Shown here: one piece after another, positions 3,861-30,033 of the stretch
Position numbering within the stretch: position 1 is the first letter of the stretch
How the letters are laid out: the number at the start of each line of letters is the position of its first letter
Source: Candidatus Beckwithbacteria bacterium GW2011_GWC1_49_16
GTDB lineage: Bacteria; Patescibacteriota; Microgenomatia; UBA1400; CG1-02-47-37
NCBI GenBank assembly: GCA_001029675.1
Contig: CP011210.1
Span: 256,193-320,192 of the forward strand
Length of the DNA: 64,000 nucleotides
Direction of reading: 5' to 3'
Position numbers and translations under genes: made by a program
Notes under the pieces: generated by a model
Database searches by the model: none
What the model was told of the DNA's origin: nothing
What the model saw: the letters and a program-made list of their open reading frames with translations, nothing else

Positions 3861-5177
3861 ATGCCTACCGATAAGCACGAGTTGCCTCCGGAAAGTTTGG
3901 ATTTGAAACAAGCGCTTCACGAAGAGCGGCATATGCTCGAGGACGTCGAGACACCAGTGGTGACGGTATCAGCCACTTACCGCAAAGAGCTGGCGTATAA
4001 ATATCAGACTTTGGTTCACGCCGCGTCTGACGTGGTTTTCTCCCGGGCCCACTACTCGATGGCCGAGGCGGTGGTGCGGGCGTCGACTCTTTTAGGAAGA
4101 GCGGCCCACATGGCGGATCCGACTAACTTTGTTTCGCACCGCGATTGGCAAAAGGTTCAGTTTACCGAAAAAGTGGGGCAACTGATGGCCCGGTCAAAGA
4201 TACTCAAGTGGGTTAAAGACAAAGTCGACACCGTGGCTAGAAATCAACTGCCGATCAACCAAGCGATTACCCCGCCTTTAATTTACCTTACCGGCAGAGT
4301 CCGTTGTCCGGTGGTGTCGCTACACTATGAAGTGGGCAATATTTTGGTTGAAAACGGCCGGGAGGTAGTTCAGGTGGTGACCGACCCGCACGTTAGGCCG
4401 CAGTATTTAACCTGCCTGCCTTCAGACAAAATTACCTACTGTGTTTTTGACGAGAGGACTAAAAAGGATTTATTAAAGCAGGCCAGAAAGATGGGGAAAA
4501 ATATCAAGCGGGGGCAGGTGGCAGTCACCGGGCCGCCGGTAGACCCGAGAATTGTCAGATTGGGTAGAAGCGTTAAAGATCTTGGTAAAAACGAGATGGT
4601 CAATTTGGCGGTGGCGACGGGAGGTTTAGGGACGAACATGGACGAAATCAGGCAAATTTTGGACCAGCTGGTGCCGCTTCTTAAGCCTCCGGCTAAAATT
4701 AGGCTGTTCTTGTACGCCGGAACGCATCGGGACTTTAGGGCTTTGTTTGAGGACTATGCCGAGGACAACGGGGTGAGGATCGGTAACCTGGACGATGAGC
4801 TGGCACCAATAAGGATTCTTTACGAGGACTCGATAATTGATGCCAACAACAACCTGATCCGTTACATGTTTCCTTGGGCTCACGGAGTGGTGACCAAGCC
4901 GTCGGGAGACATGGCTTACGACGCGGCCGCGGCCGGGTGCTTTTTACTCTTTTTGAAGCCTTGGGGAGAGTGGGAAGAAAACATTCAAAAGCGGTTTGTC
5001 AAACGCCGCGTGGGTTATGATTTTCCGCCGGAAGATGCTTTGGAACATTTTAAAAGTTTGTGGTCGAGGGGGTTACTTAATAGCGCCATGAGCCGGGCGC
5101 GCCGGCTGCCCAAAATTTTCCGCGAAGGCGCCAAAAACATCGTTAGGGTGCATCAAGGTAAGCCGTGCCGGGTGTAG
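3861..5177 (+). CDS. glycosyltransferase, GT28 / MurG-UgtP-like C-terminal domain (tentative)
   Basis: AVATGGLGTN and AHGVVTKPSGDMAYDAAAAGCFLLF resemble the nucleotide-sugar binding half of MurG / MGDG synthase family enzymes. Confidence 0.4.
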   Translation: MPTDKHELPPESLDLKQALHEERHMLEDVETPVVTVSATYRKELAYKYQTLVHAASDVVFSRAHYSMAEAVVRASTLLGRAAHMADPTNFVSHRDWQKVQFTEKVGQLMARSKILKWVKDKVDTVARNQLPINQAITPPLIYLTGRVRCPVVSLHYEVGNILVENGREVVQVVTDPHVRPQYLTCLPSDKITYCVFDERTKKDLLKQARKMGKNIKRGQVAVTGPPVDPRIVRLGRSVKDLGKNEMVNLAVATGGLGTNMDEIRQILDQLVPLLKPPAKIRLFLYAGTHRDFRALFEDYAEDNGVRIGNLDDELAPIRILYEDSIIDANNNLIRYMFPWAHGVVTKPSGDMAYDAAAAGCFLLFLKPWGEWEENIQKRFVKRRVGYDFPPEDALEHFKSLWSRGLLNSAMSRARRLPKIFREGAKNIVRVHQGKPCRV

Positions 5178-5179
5178 AG

Positions 5180-5250
5180 CAGGGGCGGCAGGAGTCGAAC
5201 CTACAGTCCGGGTTTTGGAGACCCGTGGTTTGCCATTAACCGACGCCCCT
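5180..5250 (-). tRNA. tRNA-Trp (anticodon CCA)
   Basis: Reverse complement folds as a cloverleaf. Acceptor AGGGGCG pairs with CGCCCCT. Anticodon loop is CUCCAAA. T-loop is GGTTCGACTCC. Confidence 0.85.
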
Positions 5251-5337
5251 ATGAGGCTATTTTAACACGAAGTGGGTTTCGAGCCAGCCACCTATTGACA
5301 AGCGCATTTATTTTCGGGTATTGTTTGTATAGAGGAT

Positions 5338-6111
5338 TTGAGTATGAGGTGGGATAAAGTTATAGTTCACAAAGCTAGGAAATTAAGAACAGGAGGAAGA
5401 ACCTATTCAGAAATAAATGCTCAGCTGGGAGTTAATGTGCCGAAATCTACTTATAACTTTTGGTTTAAAGACTTAATTTTGCCAGAGTCGTACTACAAAA
5501 GAATTGAGAAGTTAAATAAGAAAAATTTTAGTAAGGCGATTCGGGCGGCTCAAAAGATAAACAGGGAAAAATTGATGGCCAGGATTGATAGGCTTAGGGG
5601 TAAAAATAAACACTTGGTTGGTAGAATTGACAAGCAAACAGGAAAATTGCTTTTGGCAATGTTGTATCTGTGTGAAGGGAATAAGTATCCTTCCCATCAG
5701 GCTCTGCGGTTTGGCAGTTCCCATCCGGCAATGTTGAGATTGTTCATTGCTTTATTAAGGAGTTGCTTTAGGCTTGATGAAAATAAAATTAGAGGAGAGT
5801 TGCAATGCCGGGCCGACCAAGATACAAGAAAGCTGCAAAAATTTTGGAGTAAGGTAACAGGAATTTCCTTAAGTAGATTCTATCCAGCAAGAATTGATAA
5901 AAGGACAATAAATAAGCCGACAAAAAAGAGAGATTACAAGGGAGTTTTTGTTGTCAATTACTTTGACGTAGAAGTACAACTTGAGTTACAATTACTGGGT
6001 GAGTATTTAGGAGAAGAAGGGCCCGTAGCTCAGTTGGTAGAGCGCCTGCATGGCATGCAGGAGGTTTCAGGGGTTCGAGCCCCCTCGGGTCCACAGTTTA
6101 CTTCAACTTAG
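5338..6111 (+). CDS. HTH-domain protein with a LAGLIDADG-like motif (putative homing-endonuclease-like). The ORF runs in-frame through tRNA-Ala
   Basis: N-terminal HTH (RTYSEINAQLGVNVPKSTY). LLAMLYLCEGNKY resembles a single LAGLIDADG motif with an acidic residue plus Gly. No stop codon before the tRNA, so the last 30 codons are tRNA sequence. Confidence 0.35.
   Translation: MSMRWDKVIVHKARKLRTGGRTYSEINAQLGVNVPKSTYNFWFKDLILPESYYKRIEKLNKKNFSKAIRAAQKINREKLMARIDRLRGKNKHLVGRIDKQTGKLLLAMLYLCEGNKYPSHQALRFGSSHPAMLRLFIALLRSCFRLDENKIRGELQCRADQDTRKLQKFWSKVTGISLSRFYPARIDKRTINKPTKKRDYKGVFVVNYFDVEVQLELQLLGEYLGEEGPVAQLVERLHGMQEVSGVRAPSGPQFTST
6019..6093 (+). tRNA. tRNA-Ala (anticodon GGC)
   Basis: GGGCCCGTAGCTCAGTTGGTAGAGCGCCTGCATGGCATGCAGGAGGTTTCAGGGGTTCGAGCCCCCTCGGGTCCA; G3:U70 identity pair present; anticodon loop AUGGCAU. 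Confidence 0.85.
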
Positions 6112-6271
6112 TGGTTTCTTTGTGCAAGGTGTGCTGGCGGCAAACCTTGCAGTATTTTTTTAAAGATAGCTTTTCGGTAGTGGTGGTGCGGTTCTTTTGG
6201 GAAATGTAGTTTTGGGAACCGCAGACAGAGCACTTAAAAGCGATTAAAATTCTTGGTCCTTTTTTAGCCAT
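6098..6271 (-). CDS. rpmG: 50S ribosomal protein L33
   Basis: Hand translation gives MAKKGPRILIAFKCSVCGSQNYISQKNRTTTTEKLSLKKYCKVCRQHTLHKETTKLK, with the Cys4 zinc-ribbon pattern of L33. It is below the 60-aa cutoff of the ORF track. Confidence 0.85.
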   Translation of the reverse strand: MAKKGPRILIAFKCSVCGSQNYISQKNRTTTTEKLSLKKYCKVCRQHTLHKETTKLK

Positions 6272-6361
6272 ACTTCGACTCCTTCCAGTCGCTCAGTACA
6301 AGTAATATTCAGAGGCCAATTGTAACAGATTGGTTTGTACTGAGCAATTTAATGCGAAGTG

Positions 6362-6434
6362 AGCCGAGACCGGGAATCGAACCCGGGACCTCGAACTTAC
6401 CATGTTCGCGCTCTACCGACTGAGCTATCTCGGC
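6362..6434 (-). tRNA. tRNA-Thr (anticodon GGU)
   Basis: Reverse complement is GCCGAGATAGCTCAGTCGGTAGAGCGCGAACATGGTAAGTTCGAGGTCCCGGGTTCGATTCCCGGTCTCGGCT. Anticodon stem is CGAAC/GTTCG and the loop is AUGGUAA. Confidence 0.8.
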
Positions 6435-6474
6435 ACCTCGCTGCGCTCGGTGTAAACACAGCAACGAAGGTATT

Positions 6475-7134
6475 TTACGCCAGCCGTCTAACTTTTTCCA
6501 GCACTGCCTGCCAGTTTTTACAGGGAACGATGTTGATATCCGAGCGGGGGGCCTGGTCGGGGTAGTCGTAAAGGAACAGAACTCCTTGATAGTTTTTAGA
6601 CAAATCTTTAGCTAGCTGGGGGTGGTCGTCGACCATACCGATTACCTGGGGGTAAAGGTATTCTAAGACTTTGGCTTTCCAGGAGAGGCTTTCCGGGAGT
6701 TTAACTCCGGGGGTGCGGTAGGCGACTTCGGCTTGGGGAAAGCCGTATTTTTTGAGCCAGACTCGGGTGCCGGGCATGACCGACTTGGACCGGGCGGTAA
6801 GATAAACCACCACCGGGATAATTTGGTGAATTTGGTTGACGATGTGGTTGGCGTTTTTGATTAAGGGAAAATCGCGATGGAGTCTGTCGTCGTGGCGGAC
6901 TTGCTTTTCCCAGGCGCGAACCTCTTTGCCGCTCCAGTAGGGAGCATAGTAGGAGTAGCGGTATTTTTGTTGTACTTCTTCCACGCTCAAACCTTCGGGG
7001 TTGCCGAATTTTTCCATCAAACCTTTGATCCAAAAGTCACCGGTGCGGGCCAAGGTGTCGTCAACGTCGACGGCTAAACCCTTGAGTTTCTTTTTCTTGA
7101 GCTTGGCTTTAAGGTCTTTGATAAATGGGTGCAT
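6475..7134 (-). CDS. HAD-superfamily hydrolase
   Basis: DVDDTL (DxDxT motif I) near the N-terminus; 219 aa. Confidence 0.6.
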   Translation of the reverse strand: MHPFIKDLKAKLKKKKLKGLAVDVDDTLARTGDFWIKGLMEKFGNPEGLSVEEVQQKYRYSYYAPYWSGKEVRAWEKQVRHDDRLHRDFPLIKNANHIVNQIHQIIPVVVYLTARSKSVMPGTRVWLKKYGFPQAEVAYRTPGVKLPESLSWKAKVLEYLYPQVIGMVDDHPQLAKDLSKNYQGVLFLYDYPDQAPRSDINIVPCKNWQAVLEKVRRLA

Positions 7135-7780
7135 AGTTTAATGATTATAGCAACTTGTGATAAATTATCCTCTATGACGATAATAGAACGGGAAAGGGCG
7201 GGTGTGGCTCCAAGACTTGATGAGGCCCAAGGTTTGATAGTCGAGCTTAGTCAACGGTTGGAAACAGGGCTGGCGTTTTTGCTGGTTGATGGTCCGGTGG
7301 CCAGCGGTAAGACAGAGTTGGTTAAGGGGTTGAAGAGCGAATTTAATGGTCTTATGGGTGGGGTCGAGCCCACAGTAATTGAGGTTGACTGGGCAGTGCA
7401 GTCGCGAGAATATAGGAGTCAACATCCAGAAAAGCTTAATCGACACCAGGCTTGGTTCAGGCTGCACCGCCATTATGGTCTTCTACATCAGTATTTAAGA
7501 GGACAAGAGAATGGGGAATTAAGCATTACTCATAAAAATTTTTACCAAGCACAAAGTCGAACCAATAACTATTATGGTGGAGGCACCTTTGGAAGACAAA
7601 GTAAGGCGAATAAGGGAGAGAGCCAGGGCAAGAAATCAGGACCCCGATGAGCAGGAGAGGCGGATGCTAGAGGTGTTTGAAAAGGATTGGCTGTCAAGGC
7701 GGGAAGAGGTGTTGGCTCTGGCTGGTGGGGTGGCAGACTCAACCGAGGGGGAGTTTTTAGTGAGAAGGAATGGGGACTGA
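7129..7780 (+). pseudogene. P-loop NTPase / nucleoside-kinase-like gene split by a +1 frameshift (ORFs 7129-7650 and 7574-7780)
   Basis: Walker A LLVDGPVASGKTELV in the first ORF. The first ORF ends in low-complexity junk while the overlapping frame 7574-7780 reads as normal protein. Confidence 0.35.
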
Positions 7781-7785
7781 GAGTG

Positions 7786-7811
7786 GTGCTGGGGCCAGGG
7801 TTCGAACCTGG
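7786..7811 (-). repeat. 26-nt duplicate of the 3' end of tRNA-Tyr (att-like direct repeat)
   Basis: gtgctggggccagggttcgaacctgg is identical to 10111-10136, which is the T-arm plus acceptor 3' strand of the intact tRNA-Tyr. Confidence 0.7.
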
Positions 7812-7831
7812 TTTGGTAGTACAATAAACTT

Positions 7832-8395
7832 ATGTTAAAGATTAAGTTATATAAAGATTTACCTGAGGAGTTGAGATCAAAATATTCTAAACTGAAGAGG
7901 GGTGTTTTTGTTGGTGAAGCTCAGGAAGAAGAAGATGAGGGAATTGAACACGAAGAGGAATATTGTAGTGAAGCAGATCTTATCTGTTATTTAATTGCTT
8001 ATGAGGATGAGGAGATAATTGGGGGCTTAGAATTATTTAAAAGGAGGATTAAGCATCTTAATCAATTGATAATTTTAGGTGGGATTGGTAGTCTTTGGGT
8101 GAGAAAAGACAAAAGAAGGAGGGGTTTAGCTACAAAACTACTAAAGAAAGTAATGGAGGAATTAAAGATAAAAGGCTGTGAGGTGGTTTATTTATGTACT
8201 GATATAGGGAAATTAAAAAGTCTATATGCCCAAGTTGGCTTTGTGCCTTTAAAAAAGAATTATACTTTTGTAGGTAGGTCTGGGAAAAGATATTTTAAAG
8301 ATGACGGTATGATTGCTTTCATAAAACCTAAGGAAACTTTAAGGAAGATAGTTAAGAGTAAAGAACCATTCGATATTGGAGTAGGTAATTGGTGA
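7832..8395 (+). CDS. GNAT family N-acetyltransferase (AT-rich, probably horizontally acquired)
   Basis: RRRGLATKLLKKVMEEL acetyl-CoA-binding motif; codon usage visibly more AT-rich than the flanks. Confidence 0.7.
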   Translation: MLKIKLYKDLPEELRSKYSKLKRGVFVGEAQEEEDEGIEHEEEYCSEADLICYLIAYEDEEIIGGLELFKRRIKHLNQLIILGGIGSLWVRKDKRRRGLATKLLKKVMEELKIKGCEVVYLCTDIGKLKSLYAQVGFVPLKKNYTFVGRSGKRYFKDDGMIAFIKPKETLRKIVKSKEPFDIGVGNW

Positions 8396-8401
8396 ATTTG
8401 A

Positions 8402-8511
8402 TTGCCGAATTTTTCCATCAAACCTTTGATCCAAAAGTCGCCGGTGCGGGCCAAGGTGTCGTCAACGTCGACCGCTAAACCTTTGAGTTTCTTTTTCTTG
8501 AGTTTGGCTTT
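8402..8511 (-). pseudogene. duplicated 5' fragment of the HAD hydrolase gene, about 95% identical to 7001-7110
   Basis: Encodes ...KLKGLAVDVDDTLARTGDFWIKGLMEKFGN but lacks the start codon, and the C-terminal part diverges. Confidence 0.7.
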
Positions 8512-8537
8512 GTAGATTCGGTTTATAGTGTTGGAAT

Positions 8538-10067
8538 CTATTTTTCTCTTTGCTCTAATGACAGGGTGCCAAAATTGATTTTGGATTTTACAGGACCAAG
8601 AGGTTGCTGCAATTTTTGAAATTCAGGCACAAACATATATAGCCAACCTGGGTCAGATTCGTAGATAGAAAAGTGGGTTGGTTCAGATTGATCGGTTTTT
8701 TCAAGGAGGTCACTGCCGGTAATGCCAACTTGATCGGCGCCAACCCATTTGGGCAAATAACCATATTTTTGCTGGCCATACCAGGAGTAAAGATAAGCCC
8801 AAGTGGTGTTGTATTTATAAGGTGAAGTTAGGGTGGAAATGGAGAAGTTTTGTTTGTCGGCGGCTTGATAAGTGTAGTCAACCAGCTCGAGTAAACGGGA
8901 TAAGAAAGCTCCGTTTTGCACGGTGAAGATGTTAGAGTGAGATTGTCTGATTTGTTGAGCTGACTTAATGTTGGAGACAATAAACAAGATAGTGATTGAA
9001 CTGAGGCAGAAGGTTTTGAGCCAAGCTTGGTTTAGTTGTTTGAAAAGTAAGTACGAAAGAATGAGATAAAGAGCCGGTATTAGTCCGGTTAAAGAGTAGT
9101 AAGAAGCTCTGCCAGTGATTAGAAACATCAGTAAGGGACTGAATAGCCAAAGAACAAAAAAAACTTTCTTAGATGATGAAAGCTTTTTTAACAAGAAAAA
9201 AATTAAGGCGATTAAAATCAAAACAATTGAGAGGGTGGGGAAGGAAGGCAGAAGGGATAATTGGGCTTTTTGCAGATAAAGATTATAGATATTTTTAAGA
9301 ATACTCATTAGGCTAGGTTTTCCCCCTTCGTTAATATAGAAATCGCTAAGTTGATAAACATGATTAATGAGTAATTTGAGCTGAGTGAGAATCATAGTGC
9401 TGATAGCGATAAAGAAAATGGCCAATGATTTGAAGAAGTTTTTTGTGCCTAAAAAGAAGAAGTTTTTTTGCTTTAAGGTTTGGAAAAGGTAGATAGCTAA
9501 AGCAAGGCCGATTAAGTAAGTGGTGTAGAGGGTGGTTTGAATAGAAATGCCTAGGAATAGAGCAGTGAGGGGGAGGAATTTTTTTTGTTTTTTAAACAAG
9601 GATTGCCAAAGGTAATAGTGGAAGAAAGGGACAGACCAGGTAGTTAAGCTGGGAGCGCCGAGCCATGATCCGACTACAGCAGCGTCAACCGAGAAAGCAT
9701 AAAGCACAGAAGCCCAGATGCCAACTAGGCGAGATTGAAAGATTGTTTTACTAATTAAGAAGATGGGGATGACGGTTAGGGAACTTAAAAGGCTTAAGCC
9801 TAAAGTGGGGATTAATGGGTCACCGTGGGAGAGGGTGTATAAAGGGCCAATAACATAATAGTATAAAACACCGCCGTACAGTCTGTCGTTGGTGCTGCTG
9901 CTTGAAGGACCTTGAATTTTTAAATCTTTGTTTTCAAGAATTGATCGTGAAACGATGGCGTCTCGGGCTTGTTGAAAATAAAATTCAAAGTGATTATCCC
10001 TGATAAGATACCAGCGGAATAAGAAGCTTAGAGTGATTAAACTCACCAGAATGAGCTTTTGCCTCAT
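8538..10067 (-). CDS. polytopic membrane protein, possibly a GT-C-fold glycosyltransferase (ArnT/PMT-like), AT-rich
   Basis: 509 aa with at least 10 predicted TM helices and a loop-rich architecture. No confident motif. Confidence 0.35.
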   Translation of the reverse strand: MRQKLILVSLITLSFLFRWYLIRDNHFEFYFQQARDAIVSRSILENKDLKIQGPSSSSTNDRLYGGVLYYYVIGPLYTLSHGDPLIPTLGLSLLSSLTVIPIFLISKTIFQSRLVGIWASVLYAFSVDAAVVGSWLGAPSLTTWSVPFFHYYLWQSLFKKQKKFLPLTALFLGISIQTTLYTTYLIGLALAIYLFQTLKQKNFFFLGTKNFFKSLAIFFIAISTMILTQLKLLINHVYQLSDFYINEGGKPSLMSILKNIYNLYLQKAQLSLLPSFPTLSIVLILIALIFFLLKKLSSSKKVFFVLWLFSPLLMFLITGRASYYSLTGLIPALYLILSYLLFKQLNQAWLKTFCLSSITILFIVSNIKSAQQIRQSHSNIFTVQNGAFLSRLLELVDYTYQAADKQNFSISTLTSPYKYNTTWAYLYSWYGQQKYGYLPKWVGADQVGITGSDLLEKTDQSEPTHFSIYESDPGWLYMFVPEFQKLQQPLGPVKSKINFGTLSLEQREK

Positions 10068-10111
10068 TGAATGATTATAAAATTTTAGCTGGTTGGTTGC
10101 CAGCGGTATAG

Positions 10112-10194
10112 TGCTGGGGCCAGGGTTCGAACCTGGGTAGGCTTGCGCCGCGAGTTTTACAGACTCGTGTGTTTGACCACTCCACCACCCCAGC
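10112..10194 (-). tRNA. tRNA-Tyr (anticodon GUA), type II with a long variable arm
   Basis: Reverse complement is GCTGGGGTGGTGGAGTGGTCAAACACACGAGTCTGTAAAACTCGCGGCGCAAGCCTACCCAGGTTCGAACCCTGGCCCCAGCA. Confidence 0.85.
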
Positions 10195-10225
10195 GTGAGA
10201 ATATTTTAGCAGATTTTGTTTGGGG

Positions 10226-10299
10226 AGCCGCCTTTCGGATTCGAACCGAAGACCTGCTGTTTACAAAACAGCTGCTCTGGCCGGCTGAGCTAAGGCGGC
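10226..10299 (-). tRNA. tRNA-Thr (anticodon UGU)
   Basis: Reverse complement is GCCGCCTTAGCTCAGCCGGCCAGAGCAGCTGTTTTGTAAACAGCAGGTCTTCGGTTCGAATCCGAAAGGCGGCT. Confidence 0.8.
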
Positions 10300-10320
10300 A
10301 TACAAAAAAATGCCCCACTC

Positions 10321-10458
10321 GGCCGATTTCTGGAAGTTGGTCCCCAGACAAAGTCCAGGAGGGGTAGGCTGAGCCGACGGCAAAAGCCTGTCGAGCTACT
10401 TCTCCGAGTGAATTTCATTCGGAGCTTTACGCCTCCCTTTACACAATCATTGAGGAGT
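10321..10458. other. GC-rich, highly self-complementary intergenic segment (candidate structured RNA or leader)
   Basis: Closing helix ctggaag...cttccag. Internal hairpins ccccagacaaagtccaggagggg, cgacggcaaaagcctgtcg and ctccgagtgaatttcattcggag. No ORF is present. Confidence 0.2.
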
Positions 10459-10528
10459 AACCTTCCAGAATGTCAACGAGCCTCGTAGGGCAGGGTCACG
10501 ATGGATATCGGACCAAAATCATTATATC

Positions 10529-11008
10529 ATGGTGTCAATAGCTATGGCTGAAGAAGGAAGAGTAGAAAGAGAAGTTTATTTAGAAAGTTTGTCTCAGTCT
10601 GACCGTGAGAACTTAGGCTTGATAATGACGGCTTTTCTCGATTATTTAGATACAGAAAATCTTACAGGAGAACTTCTGGTTGTCGGTGGAAGCGTTGTGC
10701 CTGAAACTAGAGGCACAAAGCGTAAAGACATTGATTTAGTGCCGTTGATTGATAACCAAAGCTCGTTTGAGGATTTTGAAAAATTGGTGACTTTTTTTCG
10801 TGACAAAACAGAATTTATGAAGATAAAGGTAATAAGGCCGATTATTGACGAGGAGTTTGGAGATCCGGAGATTTTAAGACATGATGGTTCGTTTATCTTA
10901 CTGCCGGACGAGGGGACACCTTTTGAATTTATTAGAATTGATCCAACCGTTGATAAGGGAGATCGTTTTTTTAGCGTGTTGTTACCTAAAGCAACAGGTT
11001 CAAAATAA
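10529..11008 (+). CDS. minimal nucleotidyltransferase (Pol-beta superfamily, MNT-like)
   Basis: VVGGSVVPETRGTKRKDIDLV matches the GS-x11-DxD nucleotidyltransferase signature; 159 aa. Confidence 0.5.
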   Translation: MVSIAMAEEGRVEREVYLESLSQSDRENLGLIMTAFLDYLDTENLTGELLVVGGSVVPETRGTKRKDIDLVPLIDNQSSFEDFEKLVTFFRDKTEFMKIKVIRPIIDEEFGDPEILRHDGSFILLPDEGTPFEFIRIDPTVDKGDRFFSVLLPKATGSK

Positions 11009-11597
11009 ACTGGATAGGGGGCAGAATTAGGTTGATCGCCAAGGAGTTGCCGCCGATGGGAAGAATGAGCAGGATCAGTAGCAGCATGCCGTAGTCGCGC
11101 ATAAAGGAGTTATACTCGTCGGCCCAGTCCATCGGTAAAATACCGTAGAGGATTTTAGAGCCGTCAAGCGGGGGGACGGGTAGGAGGTTAAAGATAGCCA
11201 GGTTGACGTTGATGATGATCACCGGAACAAGTAGGGCAGTCAAAAGCGAGGCGGGGGCGAGTTTCATAATAAAAGATAAGACGACAGCTAAGGCGATATT
11301 GCTGGCCGGGCCGGCAAGAGAAATTAAGGCCGAGTCGCGTTTGGGGTGAGCCAGGTTAAAAGGATCAAAAGGCACCGGTTTGCCCCAGCCAAAGCGAAAA
11401 AGGAGTAACATGATCGTGCCGACTGGGTCAAGATGAGCCAGTGGGTTTAAGCTGACGCGGCCCGAAAGTCTTGCCGTGGGGTCGCCCAAGCGGTCGGCGA
11501 CAAAGGCGTGGGCAAATTCGTGGATGGTAACGGCGATGACCAGGCTTGCCGCCCAGACGAGAAAGAGGATAGGATTTGAGAGTAACTCGGTTAACAT
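10986..11597 (-). CDS. site-2 protease family (M50) zinc metalloprotease, small form
   Basis: HEFAHAFVA (HExxH) and NLLPVPPLDGSKIL (LDG motif); multiple TM segments. Confidence 0.7.
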   Translation of the reverse strand: MLTELLSNPILFLVWAASLVIAVTIHEFAHAFVADRLGDPTARLSGRVSLNPLAHLDPVGTIMLLLFRFGWGKPVPFDPFNLAHPKRDSALISLAGPASNIALAVVLSFIMKLAPASLLTALLVPVIIINVNLAIFNLLPVPPLDGSKILYGILPMDWADEYNSFMRDYGMLLLILLILPIGGNSLAINLILPPIQFILNLLL

Positions 11598-11629
11598 AAT
11601 ATAGATAGTATGTTATCATACTCCCCAAT

Positions 11630-11821
11630 ATGGCTTTAAAGTGTGACAACTGCGGCAAGGGAGTCCAGCACGGCAATTACGTTTCCCACGCCAAAAACCG
11701 AACCAAAAGAACTTTTAGGCCCAATTTGAAAAGGGTGACTTTAAAAATTGACGGCGCCAAAAAGATAATGACGCTTTGCGCTAAGTGCGTCAAGCTTTTA
11801 AAGAAGCGGGCCTATAAGTAG
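11630..11821 (+). CDS. rpmB: 50S ribosomal protein L28
   Basis: [36 protein letters not shown] matches the L28 consensus. Confidence 0.85.
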
Positions 11822-12384
11822 AGCCGGTTTTGTTTGATGTAGCGGGCAACTTTTGAGGGAACTAAGTGTTTGATCGACAGTTGGGCTTTGAGTCTTTTGC
11901 GCACCATGGTGGAGGAGATGTTGGTGACGATTTGCAGCGGGTGGGTTAGGGGTTTCATGCCCGGTTTTAATGGTTTTAAGGGAAAGCCGGCTCGGGGATA
12001 AACGTAAAAAGGCATGAGTTTGAGTAAGGTCTGCCACTGGGGCCAGGAAGTAAAGTTTTTTAGGTTATCAGAACCCATCAAAAAAGAGAACCGGTGTCGG
12101 GGATGCTTTTTTTTGAGGAAAGTAATGTGGTCAATGGTGTTGCCGGACATTTTATTATCAATGACACAGGTTTCGGTTTTAACCTGGCTGTTTTCGAGCA
12201 TTCGAGCCATGCTCAAGCGGTGTTTGACCGGAGCCAGATGAGAATTTTTGGCAAAAGAATGCTGGTAGTCGGGAAGCAGCCAGATTTGGTTGAGGTCTTT
12301 GATTAATTCAAAGGCCTGAGACAGGACTAGCTGGTGGCCTAAGTGGGCCGGATTAAAGGAGCCGCCAAAGAGGGTGACGTTCAT
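11812..12384 (-). CDS. nadD: nicotinate-nucleotide adenylyltransferase
   Basis: [12 protein letters not shown] (HxGH-type nucleotidyltransferase motif). Confidence 0.8.
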
Positions 12385-12388
12385 GGGG

Positions 12389-13084
12389 TTATTTTAGCAG
12401 ATGGGAGTAGCCGTTTTTGAATTGTTTGAGGCTGATCGGGTTTTTGCCCTCAAGTTGGACCATATTTTTAGGCAACAGCTTTAGTATTTTACCATTAGGC
12501 ATGGTTGTCCAAACCCCCGGCCAAGGATAAAAAGCCCGGATTTTTTTGTCGTCAACGCCGTGTTTAAACTCTTCCCAGGAAACAAAACCGTCTTTTTTAG
12601 TGAATTTGTGGCAGTATGGGGTAGGCGAATCTTTCGGTTGCGGCCTCGAGGTGATTTTGCCTTCGATATAATCGGGCAAGGTTGATATTAAAAGCTTAGC
12701 CCCTTCGGTAAAACAGCGCCTAAGCAGGCTTTTGACGGTGTCTTGAAGCAGGATTTTGACCGGTTTTTGGGCGACGATCGGGCCTTGATCAAACTCCTCA
12801 ACCATCTTGATAATCGATATCCCCGACTCTTTTGCTCCATTTAATATTTGGTAAGGCGCGGGAGTGGCGCCGCGGTAAGCCGGAAGAAGCGAGGGGTGAA
12901 GATTTAGCCCGCCGAACTTGATTTTCTCAAGAGTTTCTTGGGAGATTTTCTGGCCGTAGTCGGCCACGACGATCAGCTGGGCGCTTTTAAGGTTGTCAAC
13001 CAGCCTGTAACCGGCCTTTTCCAAGGCGCTTTTAACAATTTGCGAGTTCTCCGACGAGCCGAAAAAAAGAAGGTTAGGCTTCAT
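12389..13084 (-). CDS. fmt: methionyl-tRNA formyltransferase (short form)
   Basis: NLHPSLLPAYRGATP formyltransferase motif; adjacent to def; only 231 aa, so the C-terminal domain is reduced. Confidence 0.7.
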   Translation of the reverse strand: MKPNLLFFGSSENSQIVKSALEKAGYRLVDNLKSAQLIVVADYGQKISQETLEKIKFGGLNLHPSLLPAYRGATPAPYQILNGAKESGISIIKMVEEFDQGPIVAQKPVKILLQDTVKSLLRRCFTEGAKLLISTLPDYIEGKITSRPQPKDSPTPYCHKFTKKDGFVSWEEFKHGVDDKKIRAFYPWPGVWTTMPNGKILKLLPKNMVQLEGKNPISLKQFKNGYSHLLK

Positions 13085-23599: not shown

Positions 23600-24478
23600 A
23601 TGAGTCAAGACGAGCTCAAGTACTGGGTGGGGGTGGCCGGGTTTGCCGGCATGGGGATAAAGCGGTTTACACTACTTAAAAAATACTTCGGGTCGGTGGA
23701 AGCGATTTGGCAGGCGTCGACAGGTAAACTAATATCTTTGGGAATAAAACCGGAAATGGCTAAAAGTTGGCAGGTGTGGCGCGAGGGCCGCGATCTCGAT
23801 CGGGAGATAGAAAGGTTGGGTAAGGAACTGATTAAAGTTATTACCATTGAAGATAGCAGGTACCCTAAACTATTAAAAGAGATTGACTTACCGCCATTTA
23901 TCTTGTTTGTTAAAGGTAAGGTAAACGTCCTAAACAGGCGGGCGGTAGCGGTGGTGGGGACGAGAAAGGTCAGCAGTTACGGCCGGAGGGTAACGGGTGG
24001 TCTGGTTAGTGGTTTAGTCAAAGAAAAACTGGTAGTGGTGTCGGGTTTGGCGCGGGGGGTGGACAGTTTGGCCCATCGGGCCACTTTGGCCGCCCGCGGA
24101 GTGACGGTGGCGGTTTTGGGGCACGGTTTAGACCGGGTCTATCCGCCTGAGAATCGACCTCTGGCAGAAGAGATCGTTCGCTCTGGTGGAGCCATCGTCA
24201 GTGAGTACCCCTTGGGTTATGGGATTCAAAAAGGCAATTTTCCGGCCCGAAACAGGATTGTGGCCGGTTTAAGTCTGGGAGTGGTGGTGACCGAGGGGGC
24301 GCACCGCAGCGGCACCAAGATCACGGCCGGTTTTGCGGCAGACTTCGGCCGCGAGGTTTTTGCCGTACCCGGGCCGGTAGGCAGTCCGACGTCCGTCGGA
24401 CCGGCAGATTTGATTAAACAGGGGGCAAAATTGGTGACGGGGGTCGAGGACGTTTTAGAGGAGTTGCCGCGGGGTTGA
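23600..24478 (+). CDS. dprA: DNA-processing protein DprA (Smf)
   Basis: Rossmann-like core AVVGTRKVSSYGRRVTGGLVSGL...VVSGLARGVDSLAH. Confidence 0.85.
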   Translation: MSQDELKYWVGVAGFAGMGIKRFTLLKKYFGSVEAIWQASTGKLISLGIKPEMAKSWQVWREGRDLDREIERLGKELIKVITIEDSRYPKLLKEIDLPPFILFVKGKVNVLNRRAVAVVGTRKVSSYGRRVTGGLVSGLVKEKLVVVSGLARGVDSLAHRATLAARGVTVAVLGHGLDRVYPPENRPLAEEIVRSGGAIVSEYPLGYGIQKGNFPARNRIVAGLSLGVVVTEGAHRSGTKITAGFAADFGREVFAVPGPVGSPTSVGPADLIKQGAKLVTGVEDVLEELPRG

Positions 24479-27212: not shown

Positions 27213-28628
27213 TTGATGGCAAAAAAGCGAGGACGCTTAGTTGTGCGGTATGGGCCGATGTGGTCGGATAAAACCAGTTGGTTAATAAAGCAGTTTGGTA
27301 AAGTGGCTGACACATTGGCTTTTAAGCCCGATATTGATACCAGGTATACTAGAAAGCCGGTTTTAAGGACTCACGATGGAAAGAGCGTGCCGGCAGTAAT
27401 GGTGCCAATTGATCAACCAGAAAAGATTTTCGAGGCAGTAAAAAGAAAACGGGGGGTAATAAAACGAGTGCTGATTGATGAAACTAACTTTTTTTCTGGT
27501 GGTTTGGTGAAAGTAGTTAGAAATTTGATTGGAATGGGGATTGATGTTTATACTGCTGGGTTAATCTTGGATACCGACCTGCAAGACTTTGGTCCAACCA
27601 GGAAGTTAACTAGGATGGCCGATGAGGTGGTAGAAAGTTTTGCTAGGTGTGATTTTATGTTTTTAACTGGTAGGTGTGGGAGGAGAGCCAGGTTTAACTA
27701 TTTTAAAGCAAAAAAGGATACGCAAATTGTGGTGGGGGCCGATGAGTTGTACGGCGTAGCCTGTGAAGATCATTATCAGGCCCTTCACTTTAAGACTGGT
27801 AGTCAAAAACAGTGGTGGTCAAGAATTAAGAAGCTGGTTGGGGCTAATCACCAAAAGAGCGACTGGAGTTGGTTTAGGCGATTAAAGTTACCGTCTAAGA
27901 AAAGGAGGCCGTTAAAGTTTTCCTTTGACCGGTGGCCAAGAATCGAAGTAGTAGCAGACAGTATGCGGGTGGGTAAAACTACGGCGGCTAGGGCTTTGGG
28001 TATAGAGCTTAAAAAACTGGGTCTGCCAGTAAGAGTCAGTTTAGAGGATTGGTCGAATAATCCCTATTTGGAAAAGAGTTACCTTGATTCGTCGGAATGG
28101 ATACTTTTGTCACAAGAGTGGTTTGCTAAGAAAAAATTTGAGCAAATTAAACGTGGAGAGAAAGAAGCAATATTTATTCAGGATGTTAGTCCGGAGATGG
28201 ATTTTGCTTATGCTTTGACCAATGTGCTCATGGGTAGGATGTCAAAGGAGCATTTTAAGGATTACTTTAAGTTCTATTCTAGCCACAAATGGGAAAATCT
28301 GCCGGCTCCAGACGTATTGGTTTATTTGACGATTAGCGATGAAGCCTTAGTGAAAAGGGCGTTGGAGAGTGTTAGGGATCTGGAGAAGATTGATCCATCA
28401 TATTTTTTGTTGATGCGAGCGGTTAATCGAACCTGGCTGGCTGATTCAGACCATATGACGGTGGTTAATATTGATACTGACGACCTTGATTTTTCTAAAG
28501 AAGGCCCGGCTAGAAAAGCCTTAGCCGGGCAGGTTTTAAAAAAACTACACGATTTAGGCTGGAAGTGGGATAATAGTTTTACTGCTGAGATGAAAAGGCA
28601 GGATTGGTTTGCTATGGTAGCAATATGA
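27213..28628 (+). CDS. tdk: fusion protein: thymidine kinase (N-terminal, about 195 aa) plus deoxynucleoside kinase (C-terminal)
   Basis: TK: GPMWSDKTSWLI P-loop, LIDETNFF, CxxC zinc motif. dNK: VVADSMRVGKTTAARAL P-loop and ISDEALVKRALESVRDLEKIDPSYF lid region. Confidence 0.7.
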   Translation: MMAKKRGRLVVRYGPMWSDKTSWLIKQFGKVADTLAFKPDIDTRYTRKPVLRTHDGKSVPAVMVPIDQPEKIFEAVKRKRGVIKRVLIDETNFFSGGLVKVVRNLIGMGIDVYTAGLILDTDLQDFGPTRKLTRMADEVVESFARCDFMFLTGRCGRRARFNYFKAKKDTQIVVGADELYGVACEDHYQALHFKTGSQKQWWSRIKKLVGANHQKSDWSWFRRLKLPSKKRRPLKFSFDRWPRIEVVADSMRVGKTTAARALGIELKKLGLPVRVSLEDWSNNPYLEKSYLDSSEWILLSQEWFAKKKFEQIKRGEKEAIFIQDVSPEMDFAYALTNVLMGRMSKEHFKDYFKFYSSHKWENLPAPDVLVYLTISDEALVKRALESVRDLEKIDPSYFLLMRAVNRTWLADSDHMTVVNIDTDDLDFSKEGPARKALAGQVLKKLHDLGWKWDNSFTAEMKRQDWFAMVAI

Positions 28629-29383
28629 AAAAACAACCGTGGTGGCAAGATCTTAAGAAAATTGGTAGCTGGCCGCTTGGTTGGTTAGCCGAAGTTGAAT
28701 TTCCTGACCAGAGGAAAGCTCAAAAGGAAAAGGGTAGAAAGTGGCCGAGAATTGAAGTGGGAGGCGACACCATGCGGGTGGGTAAAACCACGGCGGCAGT
28801 GGTGTTAAATGAACAGTTTAAGAGGAGGGGTCTGTCGGTTAATTTATCTGACGAAGATTGGCAGTCAAATCCATATTTGTTTGAAAGTTATCGGGATTCT
28901 TCCAAGACGATTTTTGAGTCGCAAAAATGGTTTGCTCAACGTAAGTATGAACAGTTAGGCAGGGAAAATAACTCGATTATGATTCAGTGCGTTCATCCGG
29001 AAATGGATTTTTGCTACGCTTTGACCAACGCGATTATGGGCAAGATGAATCAACGCCATTTTAAAGCCTATATGAGAGTTTATCTGTCTTTGGGGTGGGA
29101 TAAAATTGCGGCGCCTGATTTACTTGTTTATGTCACTGCCAGCGATGATATTTTAGTCAATCGAGCCCAACGGTCAGCGAGAGATTTTGAAGTAATTGAT
29201 CCGGAATATCTTTTGGTGATGAAGTTTTTAAACCAAACTTGGCTCAGTGGAGCTAAAAAGAGAATGGAGGTGTTAGTGATAGATACTGACAATTTTAACT
29301 TTGCCCTCAACCAGAAATCCAGAAAGGAGTTGTCTGACCAAGTGATTAAAAAACTAAAGCAGAGAGGTTGGAGATTAAAGTGA
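28625..29383 (+). CDS. deoxynucleoside kinase family protein (paralog of the C-terminal domain of the upstream fusion)
   Basis: GGDTMRVGKTTAAVVL P-loop, ASDDILVNRAQRSARDFEVIDPEYL. ATGA overlap with the upstream stop. Confidence 0.7.
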   Translation: MKKQPWWQDLKKIGSWPLGWLAEVEFPDQRKAQKEKGRKWPRIEVGGDTMRVGKTTAAVVLNEQFKRRGLSVNLSDEDWQSNPYLFESYRDSSKTIFESQKWFAQRKYEQLGRENNSIMIQCVHPEMDFCYALTNAIMGKMNQRHFKAYMRVYLSLGWDKIAAPDLLVYVTASDDILVNRAQRSARDFEVIDPEYLLVMKFLNQTWLSGAKKRMEVLVIDTDNFNFALNQKSRKELSDQVIKKLKQRGWRLK

Positions 29384-30033
29384 GAAAACAGCAGGGTAAG
29401 TTGATAGTTTTTGAGGGAATCGACGGTTCGGGTAAAGCCACGCAGGCAAAGTTATTGTTTAATTATTTAAAGAAGAGAAAAGTGGCTGTGGAGGAGATTG
29501 CTTTTCCAAGATATGACACCATTCACGGCCAGGTAGTTAAGCGGATGCTTCAGGGTGAGTTTGGTAAAAGCGTTAATCCCTATCTGGCCTGTTTGCCGTT
29601 TGCTTTGGACAGGTTGATGGCTAGAGATATGATCAAAAATTGGCTGGCTCAGGACAAACTAGTGATTGCCGACCGGTATGTGACGGCTAGTATGGTGCAT
29701 TTATCAGCTTTTTTACCGCAGGATAAGCAGCAGCGGAAGTTTATGGACTGGGTGGCGATACTTGAGTATCAGATTCATGGTTTACCGCTGGAGAACTTAG
29801 TGGTTTTACTGAAAGTGCCGGCGAGATTAAGCCAGAAGTTAATGGTAAAAAAAGACATGGTGGAGAAAGATTTAATTTATCAAAAACGGGTTTATAACCA
29901 GTATCAACAGATGGCTAAAAAATTTGGGCATTGGGTAGTGGTCGAGTGCGTTGATAAAAAAGAGGAGATTTTGCCCAAAAGTGAGGTCCACCAGAGGGTG
30001 CTTGAGGCATTAAAGAGAAGAAAGATAATTTAG
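29380..30033 (+). CDS. tmk: thymidylate kinase (GTG start overlapping the upstream stop)
   Basis: LIVFEGIDGSGKATQ P-loop; DRY-type motif ADRYVTAS. Confidence 0.8.
   Translation: MRKQQGKLIVFEGIDGSGKATQAKLLFNYLKKRKVAVEEIAFPRYDTIHGQVVKRMLQGEFGKSVNPYLACLPFALDRLMARDMIKNWLAQDKLVIADRYVTASMVHLSAFLPQDKQQRKFMDWVAILEYQIHGLPLENLVVLLKVPARLSQKLMVKKDMVEKDLIYQKRVYNQYQQMAKKFGHWVVVECVDKKEEILPKSEVHQRVLEALKRRKII

Follow-up and report, generated by a model that had tools for sequence, protein, structure and literature searches.

The stretch of DNA analysed here, referred to as the window, comprises 64,000 nucleotides of Candidatus Beckwithbacteria bacterium GW2011_GWC1_49_16 (contig CP011210.1, positions 256,193 to 320,192). 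Our subject is a short interval of the window in which an intact gene for a HAD-like hydrolase (HAD) and an intact tRNA-Tyr gene are separated by 2,976 nt (7135–10110). From the tRNA towards HAD, these nucleotides hold a membrane glycosyltransferase gene of the GT-C type, a relic of HAD, a GNAT acetyltransferase gene, a stub of the 3′ end of tRNA-Tyr and a P-loop pseudogene (Table 1). An earlier note on this DNA, made from the sequence alone, had given this gene order and had pointed out that the HAD-derived and tRNA-derived repeat pairs are interleaved; the order and the interleaving are both as it described. Each inserted block amounts almost exactly to a single gene, with GT-C in 8512–10110, GNAT in 7817–8401 and the P-loop gene in 7141–7783. 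GT-C starts 43 nt beyond tRNA-Tyr, i.e., the insertion lies directly at the 3′ end of the tRNA. Five tRNA genes are identified by ARAGORN and Rfam, and the Rfam search returned nothing but tRNAs.

Table 1. Features of the tRNA-Tyr/HAD interval and its surroundings (window positions; ORF, open reading frame; aa, amino acids; GC3, G+C content at third codon positions).
Feature	Positions	Strand	Remarks
tRNA-Trp	5179–5250	-	
tRNA-Ala(ggc)	6019–6094	+	
tRNA-Thr(ggt)	6361–6434	-	
HAD-like hydrolase gene, intact	6475–7134	-	219 aa; DVDDT motif
Repeat copy A	7001–7110	-	HAD codons 9–45, within the intact gene
Retained ancestral spacer	7135–7140	-	TAAACT (tRNA/HAD strand), adjoining the HAD ATG on its upstream side; alignable to the tRNA-Tyr/HAD spacers in the related loci L001 and L002
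P-loop pseudogene, PRK/uridine-kinase-like	7174–7780	+	ORFs 7174–7650 and 7574–7780
tRNA-Tyr 3′ stub	7784–7816	-	T-arm and 3′ strand of the acceptor
GNAT acetyltransferase cassette	7832–8395	+	GC 33%, GC3 0.277
Possible further HAD remnant	8389–8400	-	12/12 with 6823–6834; overlaps the last GNAT codons
Repeat copy B	8402–8511	-	relic of HAD codons 9–45
Joint of 26 nt, GT-C stop codon to copy B	8512–8537	-	homologous neither to the start of HAD nor to L010
GT-C-type (GT39/PMT_2-like) membrane glycosyltransferase cassette	8538–10067	-	509 aa
Promoter-like site	10074–10103	-	CTGGCA-18-TATAAT, 10/12, in the 43-nt tRNA-Tyr/GT-C spacer; consensus match only
tRNA-Tyr(gta), intact	10111–10194	-	CCA not encoded; 10111–10141 is the second copy of the tRNA repeat
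tRNA-Thr(tgt)	10224–10299	-	upstream partner of tRNA-Tyr, kept in all relatives

The HAD-derived sequence is a direct repeat of 110 nt with sharp borders on both sides, in which 106 positions are identical (96.4%; blastn E = 7e-50; about 95% had been claimed). Its two copies, A within the intact gene and B next to the GT-C block, lie 1,291 nt apart with unrelated genes between them. The combination that marks a simple tandem duplication, with copies head to tail, nothing between them and neutral divergence, is not found here. Copy B lacks the first eight codons of HAD, including the start codon, and departs from the HAD sequence past codon 45. It had been called a pseudogene fragment on account of the absent start codon and a diverged C-terminus, and one strain variant (L029) agrees with this: a 13-nt out-of-frame deletion (8503–8515) crosses the upstream edge of copy B. 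The same variant has a one-codon deletion in GNAT. The out-of-frame change fits a relic that no longer codes, and the in-frame change fits a gene that is still used. The possible remnant beyond copy B corresponds to HAD codons of about 100–104 and is colinear with copy B, and its score is reached by 2 of 500 shuffled sequences. This suggests that copy B may once have extended to about codon 104, and that 165 nt were then lost in frame between TTG(A/C)CGA microhomologies.

The tRNA-derived repeat pairs 7786–7816 with 10111–10141 (29 of 31 positions). Its core, 7786–7811 and 10111–10136, is identical over all 26 nt (E = 3e-9), comprises the T-arm and the 3′ acceptor strand, and stops at the 3′ end of the tRNA. 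The two bases that follow the stub core (CA, 7784–7785) complete an encoded CCA, as in L001; the intact tRNA-Tyr has no encoded CCA and a different trailer. A stub with an encoded CCA and a differing trailer is what would be expected if the 3′ end of the intact gene had come with the insert.

The ancestral state of the interval is seen in 17 loci from other Beckwithbacteria lineages, with HAD proteins 65–70% identical. The order in all of them is M50 protease, a variable gene, tRNA-Thr(tgt), tRNA-Tyr, HAD and tRNA-Thr(ggt), followed by L33 and tRNA-Ala where the contig reaches that far. The HAD ATG lies 5–52 nt after tRNA-Tyr in 16 of these loci, and in none of the 17 are the P-loop, GNAT or GT-C genes found at this place. 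In the window, the HAD-proximal part of the ancestral spacer survives. Judged against these relatives, everything between tRNA-Tyr and HAD in the window is to be regarded as inserted. Because HAD follows tRNA-Tyr so closely in nearly all related loci, both repeat families can be traced to one ancestral junction, and by this comparison they are two copies of a single contiguous segment of about 170 nt. One duplication of this junction explains the interleaving, and the number of events at the locus follows from the three cassettes and not from the repeat pairs. The earlier note had concluded from the order of the repeats that at least two successive recombination or integration events took place. 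Several events are indeed required, given that the content from tRNA-Tyr to HAD is all inserted, but the two repeat pairs are not independent of each other and cannot be counted separately. The repeats themselves have no role of their own and are scars.

The same junction has been rearranged in other members of the group. In L027 (2700–3029, JGI Ga0075814_152), a perfect 99-nt direct repeat, composed of the whole tRNA-Tyr, a 7-nt spacer and the first two codons of HAD (ATGAAT), surrounds 132 nt, and the HAD that follows the second repeat copy lacks codons 3–11. The left part of this locus is 99.3% identical to an L028-type allele, while the 132-nt insert lies upstream of tRNA-Tyr in L026 (98.4% over 63 nt). 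The pairing of an L028-type left part with an L026-type insert identifies L027 as two alleles stacked in tandem, which meet at a new, illegitimate joint of ATGAAT to ACTCATT. In L030 (2824–3235), an 83-aa ORF and then a decayed 3′ stub of tRNA-Tyr (TACCTTAAACCAGGTTCTAAC...CCAGCAC) are located between tRNA-Tyr and HAD. This stub is of the window type, including the bases just outside the tRNA core, and not of the T-arm type of L030 itself; 1 of 2,000 shuffles reaches its score. L027 and L030 are independent cases in which the same junction is duplicated. Inserts of 236–723 nt are also present between tRNA-Thr(tgt) and tRNA-Tyr in L010, L021, L022 and L026, where other lineages have a spacer of about 25 nt. 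The interval is a recurrent insertion hotspot, and junction duplication recurs there. The inserts between the two tRNAs, which include an 82-aa ORF in L010 and two reverse-strand ORFs in L026, form a second variable slot of the tRNA cluster.

The differences between copies A and B bear on the origin of the relic. All four are synonymous changes at third codon positions (AAG/AAA at codons 11 and 18, GCC/GCG at codon 21, GGT/GGC at codon 32), and the states diagnostic of copy B are AAA11, AAA18, GCG21 and GGC32. Beyond codon 45, HAD reads ...CCCGAAGGT. With 22 of 108 sites synonymous, four synonymous changes out of four have a probability of about 0.002 under neutrality, or of about 0.01 when substitutions are also permitted in copy A, which is under constraint. 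Synonymous-only differences indicate that copy B diverged as part of a working gene. Most simply, copy B would derive from the HAD orthologue of a sister strain or from a second copy that once worked, and would not be a local duplicate in decay since its birth. Mosaic HAD alleles occur in the same cluster (P0001 and P0148), from which we conclude that recombination within HAD takes place in this population.

The P0001 protein is 95% identical to that of the window, with the same residues at 1–106 and a diverged stretch in the last 40. P0148 joins a foreign 5′ part, similar to P0018 and L026, to a remainder identical to the window from near codon 55; it lies on a contig of 1.25 kb and may be chimeric. 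In the variant L035 (ENA NODE_3999, about 3.4x coverage), a single diagnostic site of copy A out of the four, equivalent to 7039, shows the base of copy B, which could reflect gene conversion between the copies or a consensus error at low coverage.

For the composition of the cassettes, the reference was the set of 40 ORFs in the window that start with ATG and encode at least 200 aa; their mean GC3 is 0.574 ± 0.074. HAD has a GC3 of 0.632, GT-C one of 0.435 and GNAT one of 0.277, and the overall GC of GT-C is the lowest of the 40. By this measure, GT-C and GNAT look foreign. Both combine an atypical composition with absence from the 17 related loci, and of the loci compared L010 alone has GT-C. 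L010 (38.6% GC) has a GT-C homologue, 73% identical in amino acids and 74% in nucleotides, in the same place directly after tRNA-Tyr. There, homology ends 4 nt past the stop codon, HAD is missing from the locus, and the composition of the gene is typical for the genome. A second tRNA-Tyr stub was looked for in L010 and not found.

The GT-C protein of the window has no Pfam or NCBIfam match. The models considered were PF13231 and PF02366 or an equivalent. Homologues with 27–44% identity carry PF13231 (PMT_2), and one with 58% identity, located in an unrelated context in L011, is named a GT39 family protein by NCBI. The GNAT protein has clear acetyltransferase domains; a phage link was considered for it and rejected, as no relative is present among viral contigs. 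In HAD, the DVDDT motif occupies residues 23–27. The motif D[IV]DDT is found in nearly all relatives compared, and P0018 has DIGDT. The best Pfam match of HAD is LNS2_PITM1-3, whose 25.8 bits fall short of the cut-off of 27.7, and the intact protein has no match in NCBIfam or among PDB sequences. Its source names are 'Nucleotidase' and '5'(3')-deoxyribonucleotidase'.

The N-terminal part of the P-loop gene, with the Walker A motif GPVASGKT, extends from 7174 to about 7560, and the C-terminal part continues in the +1 frame (7553–7780). The frame changes between about 7553 and 7575, which corroborates the +1 frameshift described previously, and alignment to full-length homologues reveals that about 37 central residues, including the LIVEG/VILEG strand, are gone as well. 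The product of the +1 frame is the true C-terminus of the family (PITIMVEAPLEDKVRRIRER...NQDPDEQE against PLYLVVDAPRQERTTRTRQR...NNDPDIQE). The missing residues and the change of frame together imply that the gene suffered an internal deletion that also shifts the frame, and that it is dead. A word-indexed search with the P-loop sequence yielded nothing beyond the same gene, while an exhaustive HMMER search gave four weak relatives, two of them full-length (P0141, 269 aa; P0142, 243 aa). Against the Pfam PRK family (PF00485, cut-off 22), P0142 scores 27.2 bits and P0141 17.9, and P0142 also has weak udk matches in NCBIfam. The window protein gives no PRK match even when rejoined across the frameshift, and the Walker A motif and the central hydrophobic-EG strand are not found together in one frame of the gene. 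P0030, a variant of the protein that stems from run SRR3989344, has lost another internal segment; this run is treated with caution and also yields a deleted GNAT variant. A programmed ribosomal frameshift is not supported as the origin of the split, given that P0141 and P0142 are longer and in a single frame and that the internal deletion of P0030 differs.

The SRR3989344 strain, with HAD P0001 and P-loop variant P0030, was considered as the closest relative and set aside, as it is represented by that run only, with no contigs on record. A metagenome scan with the P0001-specific C-terminus retrieved 12 loci, none of them from that strain. At 23600–24478 and 27213–30033, the window encodes DprA and also a TK-dNK fusion, a dNK and a thymidylate kinase. 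Given these nucleoside and nucleotide kinase genes, the dead PRK-like kinase beside HAD may have been redundant.

The structure of the locus is reproduced across assemblies. Positions 5000–12500 are 100% identical over 7,501 nt in the NCBI assemblies GCA_003484145.1 and GCA_001774335.1, and a 4,101-nt stretch containing both repeats and the frameshift is 100% identical in ENA ERZ909573 and two JGI assemblies. The contigs aligned for this comparison measure 51–151 kb, and a contig of 1.05 Mb appears in the cluster listing. Within the collection, the exact protein is indexed in 78 blocks for HAD, in 101 for GT-C and in 108 for GNAT. Near-identical variant contigs (L029, L034 and L035), including those with single-residue GNAT variants, have the same arrangement, and the shorter L036 agrees where it spans it; L034 and L035 differ by single-nucleotide polymorphisms, one each. 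The earlier note had named a misassembly of the repeats and a sequencing error at the frameshift as outcomes that would undo its reading. Some short contigs (P0146, P0162, P0163 and L036) do stop at or near the repeats, which is usual for assembly graphs. However, at least five independent assemblies, with contigs from 51 kb upward, are identical across the repeats and the frameshift, the two copies can be told apart at the four differing positions, and the P-loop gene, compared with full-length homologues, has lost about 37 residues and does not merely contain an error of 1 nt. The chance that the arrangement is an artefact is negligible. Three apparent deviations were examined and rejected: the longer GT-C (543 aa) of L036 results from a run of Ns in a scaffold gap, P0145 (169 aa) of the HAD cluster is another gene call on identical DNA and not a different 5′ end, and the GNAT variants P0155 and P0156 have the same arrangement and not an alternative one.

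On balance, we think it rather probable that recombination with imported DNA at a tRNA-Tyr hotspot stacked two allelic versions of the junction from closely related strains. The hotspot in question lies at the 3′ end of tRNA-Tyr in the GW2011_GWB1_47_15 lineage of Candidatus Beckwithbacteria, a name that the exact HAD, GNAT and GT-C proteins bear in NCBI and UniRef. Version 1 would consist of the intact tRNA-Tyr, the GT-C cassette and the HAD relic (codons 9–45, perhaps also about 100–104), and version 2 of the 26-nt tRNA-Tyr stub, the dead P-loop cassette, the ancestral spacer and the intact HAD, with the GNAT cassette sitting between the two.

Three routes, whose enzymes and order of events we infer, would give the observed order, and we make no choice among them. 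In route (a), a circle with a tRNA 3′ segment, GT-C, the HAD relic as a passenger, and GNAT would insert at the tRNA 3′ end, either site-specifically through a recombinase in trans or by a Campbell-type crossover. The empty-site junction, with the full tRNA-Tyr joined to the P-loop side, would then read as the 52-mer GCGGCGCAAGCCTACCCAGGTTCGAACCCTGGCCCCAGCACCACTCTCAGTCC on the tRNA strand, and the circle junction as ...TTTATTGTACTACCAAA + 26-nt core + TATACCGCTGG.... In route (b), which would be a homology-facilitated illegitimate recombination as in L027, the incoming DNA would carry GNAT, tRNA-Tyr, the P-loop gene and HAD. One of its ends would join illegitimately within a resident HAD already truncated by GT-C, the other would cross over by homology in or beyond HAD, and the 5′ part of the duplicate tRNA would be lost later. 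In route (c), a circle with the whole junction and GNAT would duplicate the junction by a single crossover, with insertion of GT-C and of the P-loop gene as later steps. The presence of DprA is compatible with recombination driven by DNA uptake and does not prove it.

Several observations weigh against this reconstruction. Exact-protein look-ups revealed no parental allele, i.e., no islet-free tRNA-Tyr/P-loop/HAD locus and no tRNA-Tyr/GT-C/HAD locus. No excised circle or empty-site contig was found, and every near-identical contig has the final arrangement. There is no Pfam match to an integrase or recombinase in the islet, among the genes called up to 8 kb away on either side, or in the 36 ORFs of at least 220 aa of the window, so that route (a) requires an enzyme in trans or homologous recombination on 26 nt alone. 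The argument from synonymous-only changes uses four substitutions in all, and the 12-nt extension of copy B is just moderately significant. The identity of GT-C to its homologue in L010 (73%) is near the level of a core gene (M50, 75%), and vertical descent of GT-C at this site is countered by composition alone.

A purely local duplication in a single lineage would also provide both repeat families from one contiguous ancestral segment. Slippage or unequal crossing-over would have copied the region from the tRNA-Tyr T-arm to about HAD codon 104 in place, GNAT would have entered at the joint, GT-C in the upstream copy and the P-loop gene in the downstream copy, and the upstream HAD would have decayed. 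The junction duplication of L027, which is perfect and hence recent, shows that such copying can occur, yet even there two different alleles are stacked, and the duplicate is no plain tandem copy. Likewise, the copy-B base in L035 could reflect exchange between the copies, but this contig has about 3x coverage and its single difference may be a consensus error. Four synonymous-only differences are unexpected for a decaying copy, three more independent insertions would be needed at or near the same point, and GNAT and GT-C differ strongly in composition. We consider local duplication less likely than the stacking of alleles, and give it a small chance. A slightly better, still modest chance is held by route (a) taken alone, in which a tyrosine recombinase acting at tRNA-Tyr would have delivered a single islet (7812–10110). 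The 26-nt repeats would then be attL and attR, the integrase would have been lost later, and the HAD fragment would stem from imprecise excision in a previous host. Insertion at the tRNA 3′ end, a repeat of T-arm and acceptor that ends exactly with the tRNA, the different trailer of the displaced stub and the foreign composition all agree with an integrase-driven event, and the stub of L030, which is similar also just outside the tRNA-identical core (TACC..AAACCAGG), would fit a shared attP arm. However, neither an integrase nor an excisionase is found in the islet or the window, and the composition of the islet is mixed, with a host-like piece of HAD between GT-C and GNAT. Furthermore, the stub, the spacer and HAD codons 1–8 would be expected to accompany a fragment captured by imprecise excision, and none of these is found beside copy B.

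The relics might instead have been kept for a function. Copy B immediately follows the stop codon of GNAT, is antisense in orientation, is 96% complementary to the HAD mRNA and has an unchanged amino-acid reading, so that read-through of GNAT could yield an antisense RNA to HAD codons 9–45 that regulates HAD in trans; the P-loop gene, in turn, could be expressed by programmed +1 frameshifting. Against this, L029 has its 13-nt deletion in copy B, no terminator or structure signal and no Rfam match were found, the P-loop gene is without its central motif, and the variant protein of SRR3989344 has a different lesion. A retained function is therefore very improbable, and the stacking of two junction alleles by recombination with sister-strain DNA remains the reading that we favour.

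Other irregularities are observed around the tRNA genes of the window. Between the M50 protease and tRNA-Thr(tgt), a low-GC ORF of 159 aa (10529–11008, GC3 0.325) is common to L010 alone (53% amino-acid identity), and every other lineage has a different gene in that slot. This ORF, the tRNAs and GT-C may have entered as one block whose source was a relative with low GC. On the other side of HAD, tRNA-Ala(ggc) is inverted relative to all relatives that have one. It is overlapped by the ORF 5338–6111, which has low GC (GC3 0.37), a LAGLIDADG-like motif (LYLCEGNKYP) and no match in Pfam or NCBIfam. In L010, a relative of this ORF precedes tRNA-Trp (9054–9626, 27% identity), and another ORF, which abuts tRNA-Thr(ggt) (5573–6199), has a similar motif (YWGEGNK). 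These ORFs may represent a homing-endonuclease-like family adjoining tRNAs. A match of 19 out of 20 nt, GGCTTG[T/A]TGAAAATAAAATT, between the 5′ part of GT-C (9966–9985) and the LAGLIDADG-like ORF (5771–5790), both low-GC genes, is probably due to chance.

Our analysis explains the interleaved repeats as scars that gene gain left at a tRNA hotspot, and offers a clear and datable case of DNA exchange between strains of an uncultivated bacterium of the candidate phyla radiation (CPR). For annotation, the P-loop ORFs and the HAD fragment should be flagged as pseudogenes, and the tRNA-Thr/tRNA-Tyr/HAD interval is a variable locus that can be used in strain typing. As a speculation that we would not back strongly, the window, L027 and L030 could be three snapshots of one general route in Patescibacteria, in which single-gene cassettes are gained or swapped at tRNA/gene junctions without an integrase in small CPR genomes poor in mobile elements, through uptake of sister-strain DNA and homology-facilitated illegitimate or single-crossover recombination. 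If such an integrase-free route were general, it would be relevant to the question of how genomes that are reduced and symbiont-like still come by genes for surface modification, among them those for GT-C glycosyltransferases and acetyltransferases.

The locus shares features with several known systems. Homology-facilitated illegitimate recombination and Campbell-type insertion-duplication in naturally transformable bacteria leave foreign DNA flanked by a duplicated host segment. This pattern matches L027 and the window, where DprA is present, although no intermediates are observed here and the competence of the host is putative. Imprecise excision of the lambda gal/bio type produces mobile segments that carry a fragment of the gene next to the attachment site; in contrast to such captures, the att stub, the spacer and the first eight codons are missing beside copy B. 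Genomic islands at tRNA 3′ ends, bounded by attL and attR, resemble the window in the insertion after a tRNA, the distal direct repeat of the tRNA 3′ end and the foreign cargo absent from relatives. They differ in that the window islet measures about 2.3 kb, has no integrase or excisionase and holds a piece of a neighbouring host gene, and in that the P-loop cassette lies outside the repeat pair. In the library searched, no paper links Beckwithbacteria with the term 'genomic island'. In the tycheposon islands of Prochlorococcus, successive integrations at one tRNA push older elements inward and leave degenerate remnants and scattered partial tRNAs in small, streamlined genomes (bioRxiv 10.1101/2020.12.28.424599). 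Tycheposons carry a tyrosine recombinase and replication genes, none of which are seen here. The present locus operates on the scale of single genes, and its duplication reaches into the flanking protein gene. Hotspots of horizontal transfer between conserved core genes, which bacterial chromosomes have in general, diversify by rapid gene turnover (Oliveira et al. 2017, PMC5635113). Similarly, the interval from M50 through the tRNAs to L33 is fixed and its content differs in nearly every lineage. The locus adds one more case to a class of events already known, being a small islet without an integrase that is associated with a tRNA and lies in a transfer hotspot.

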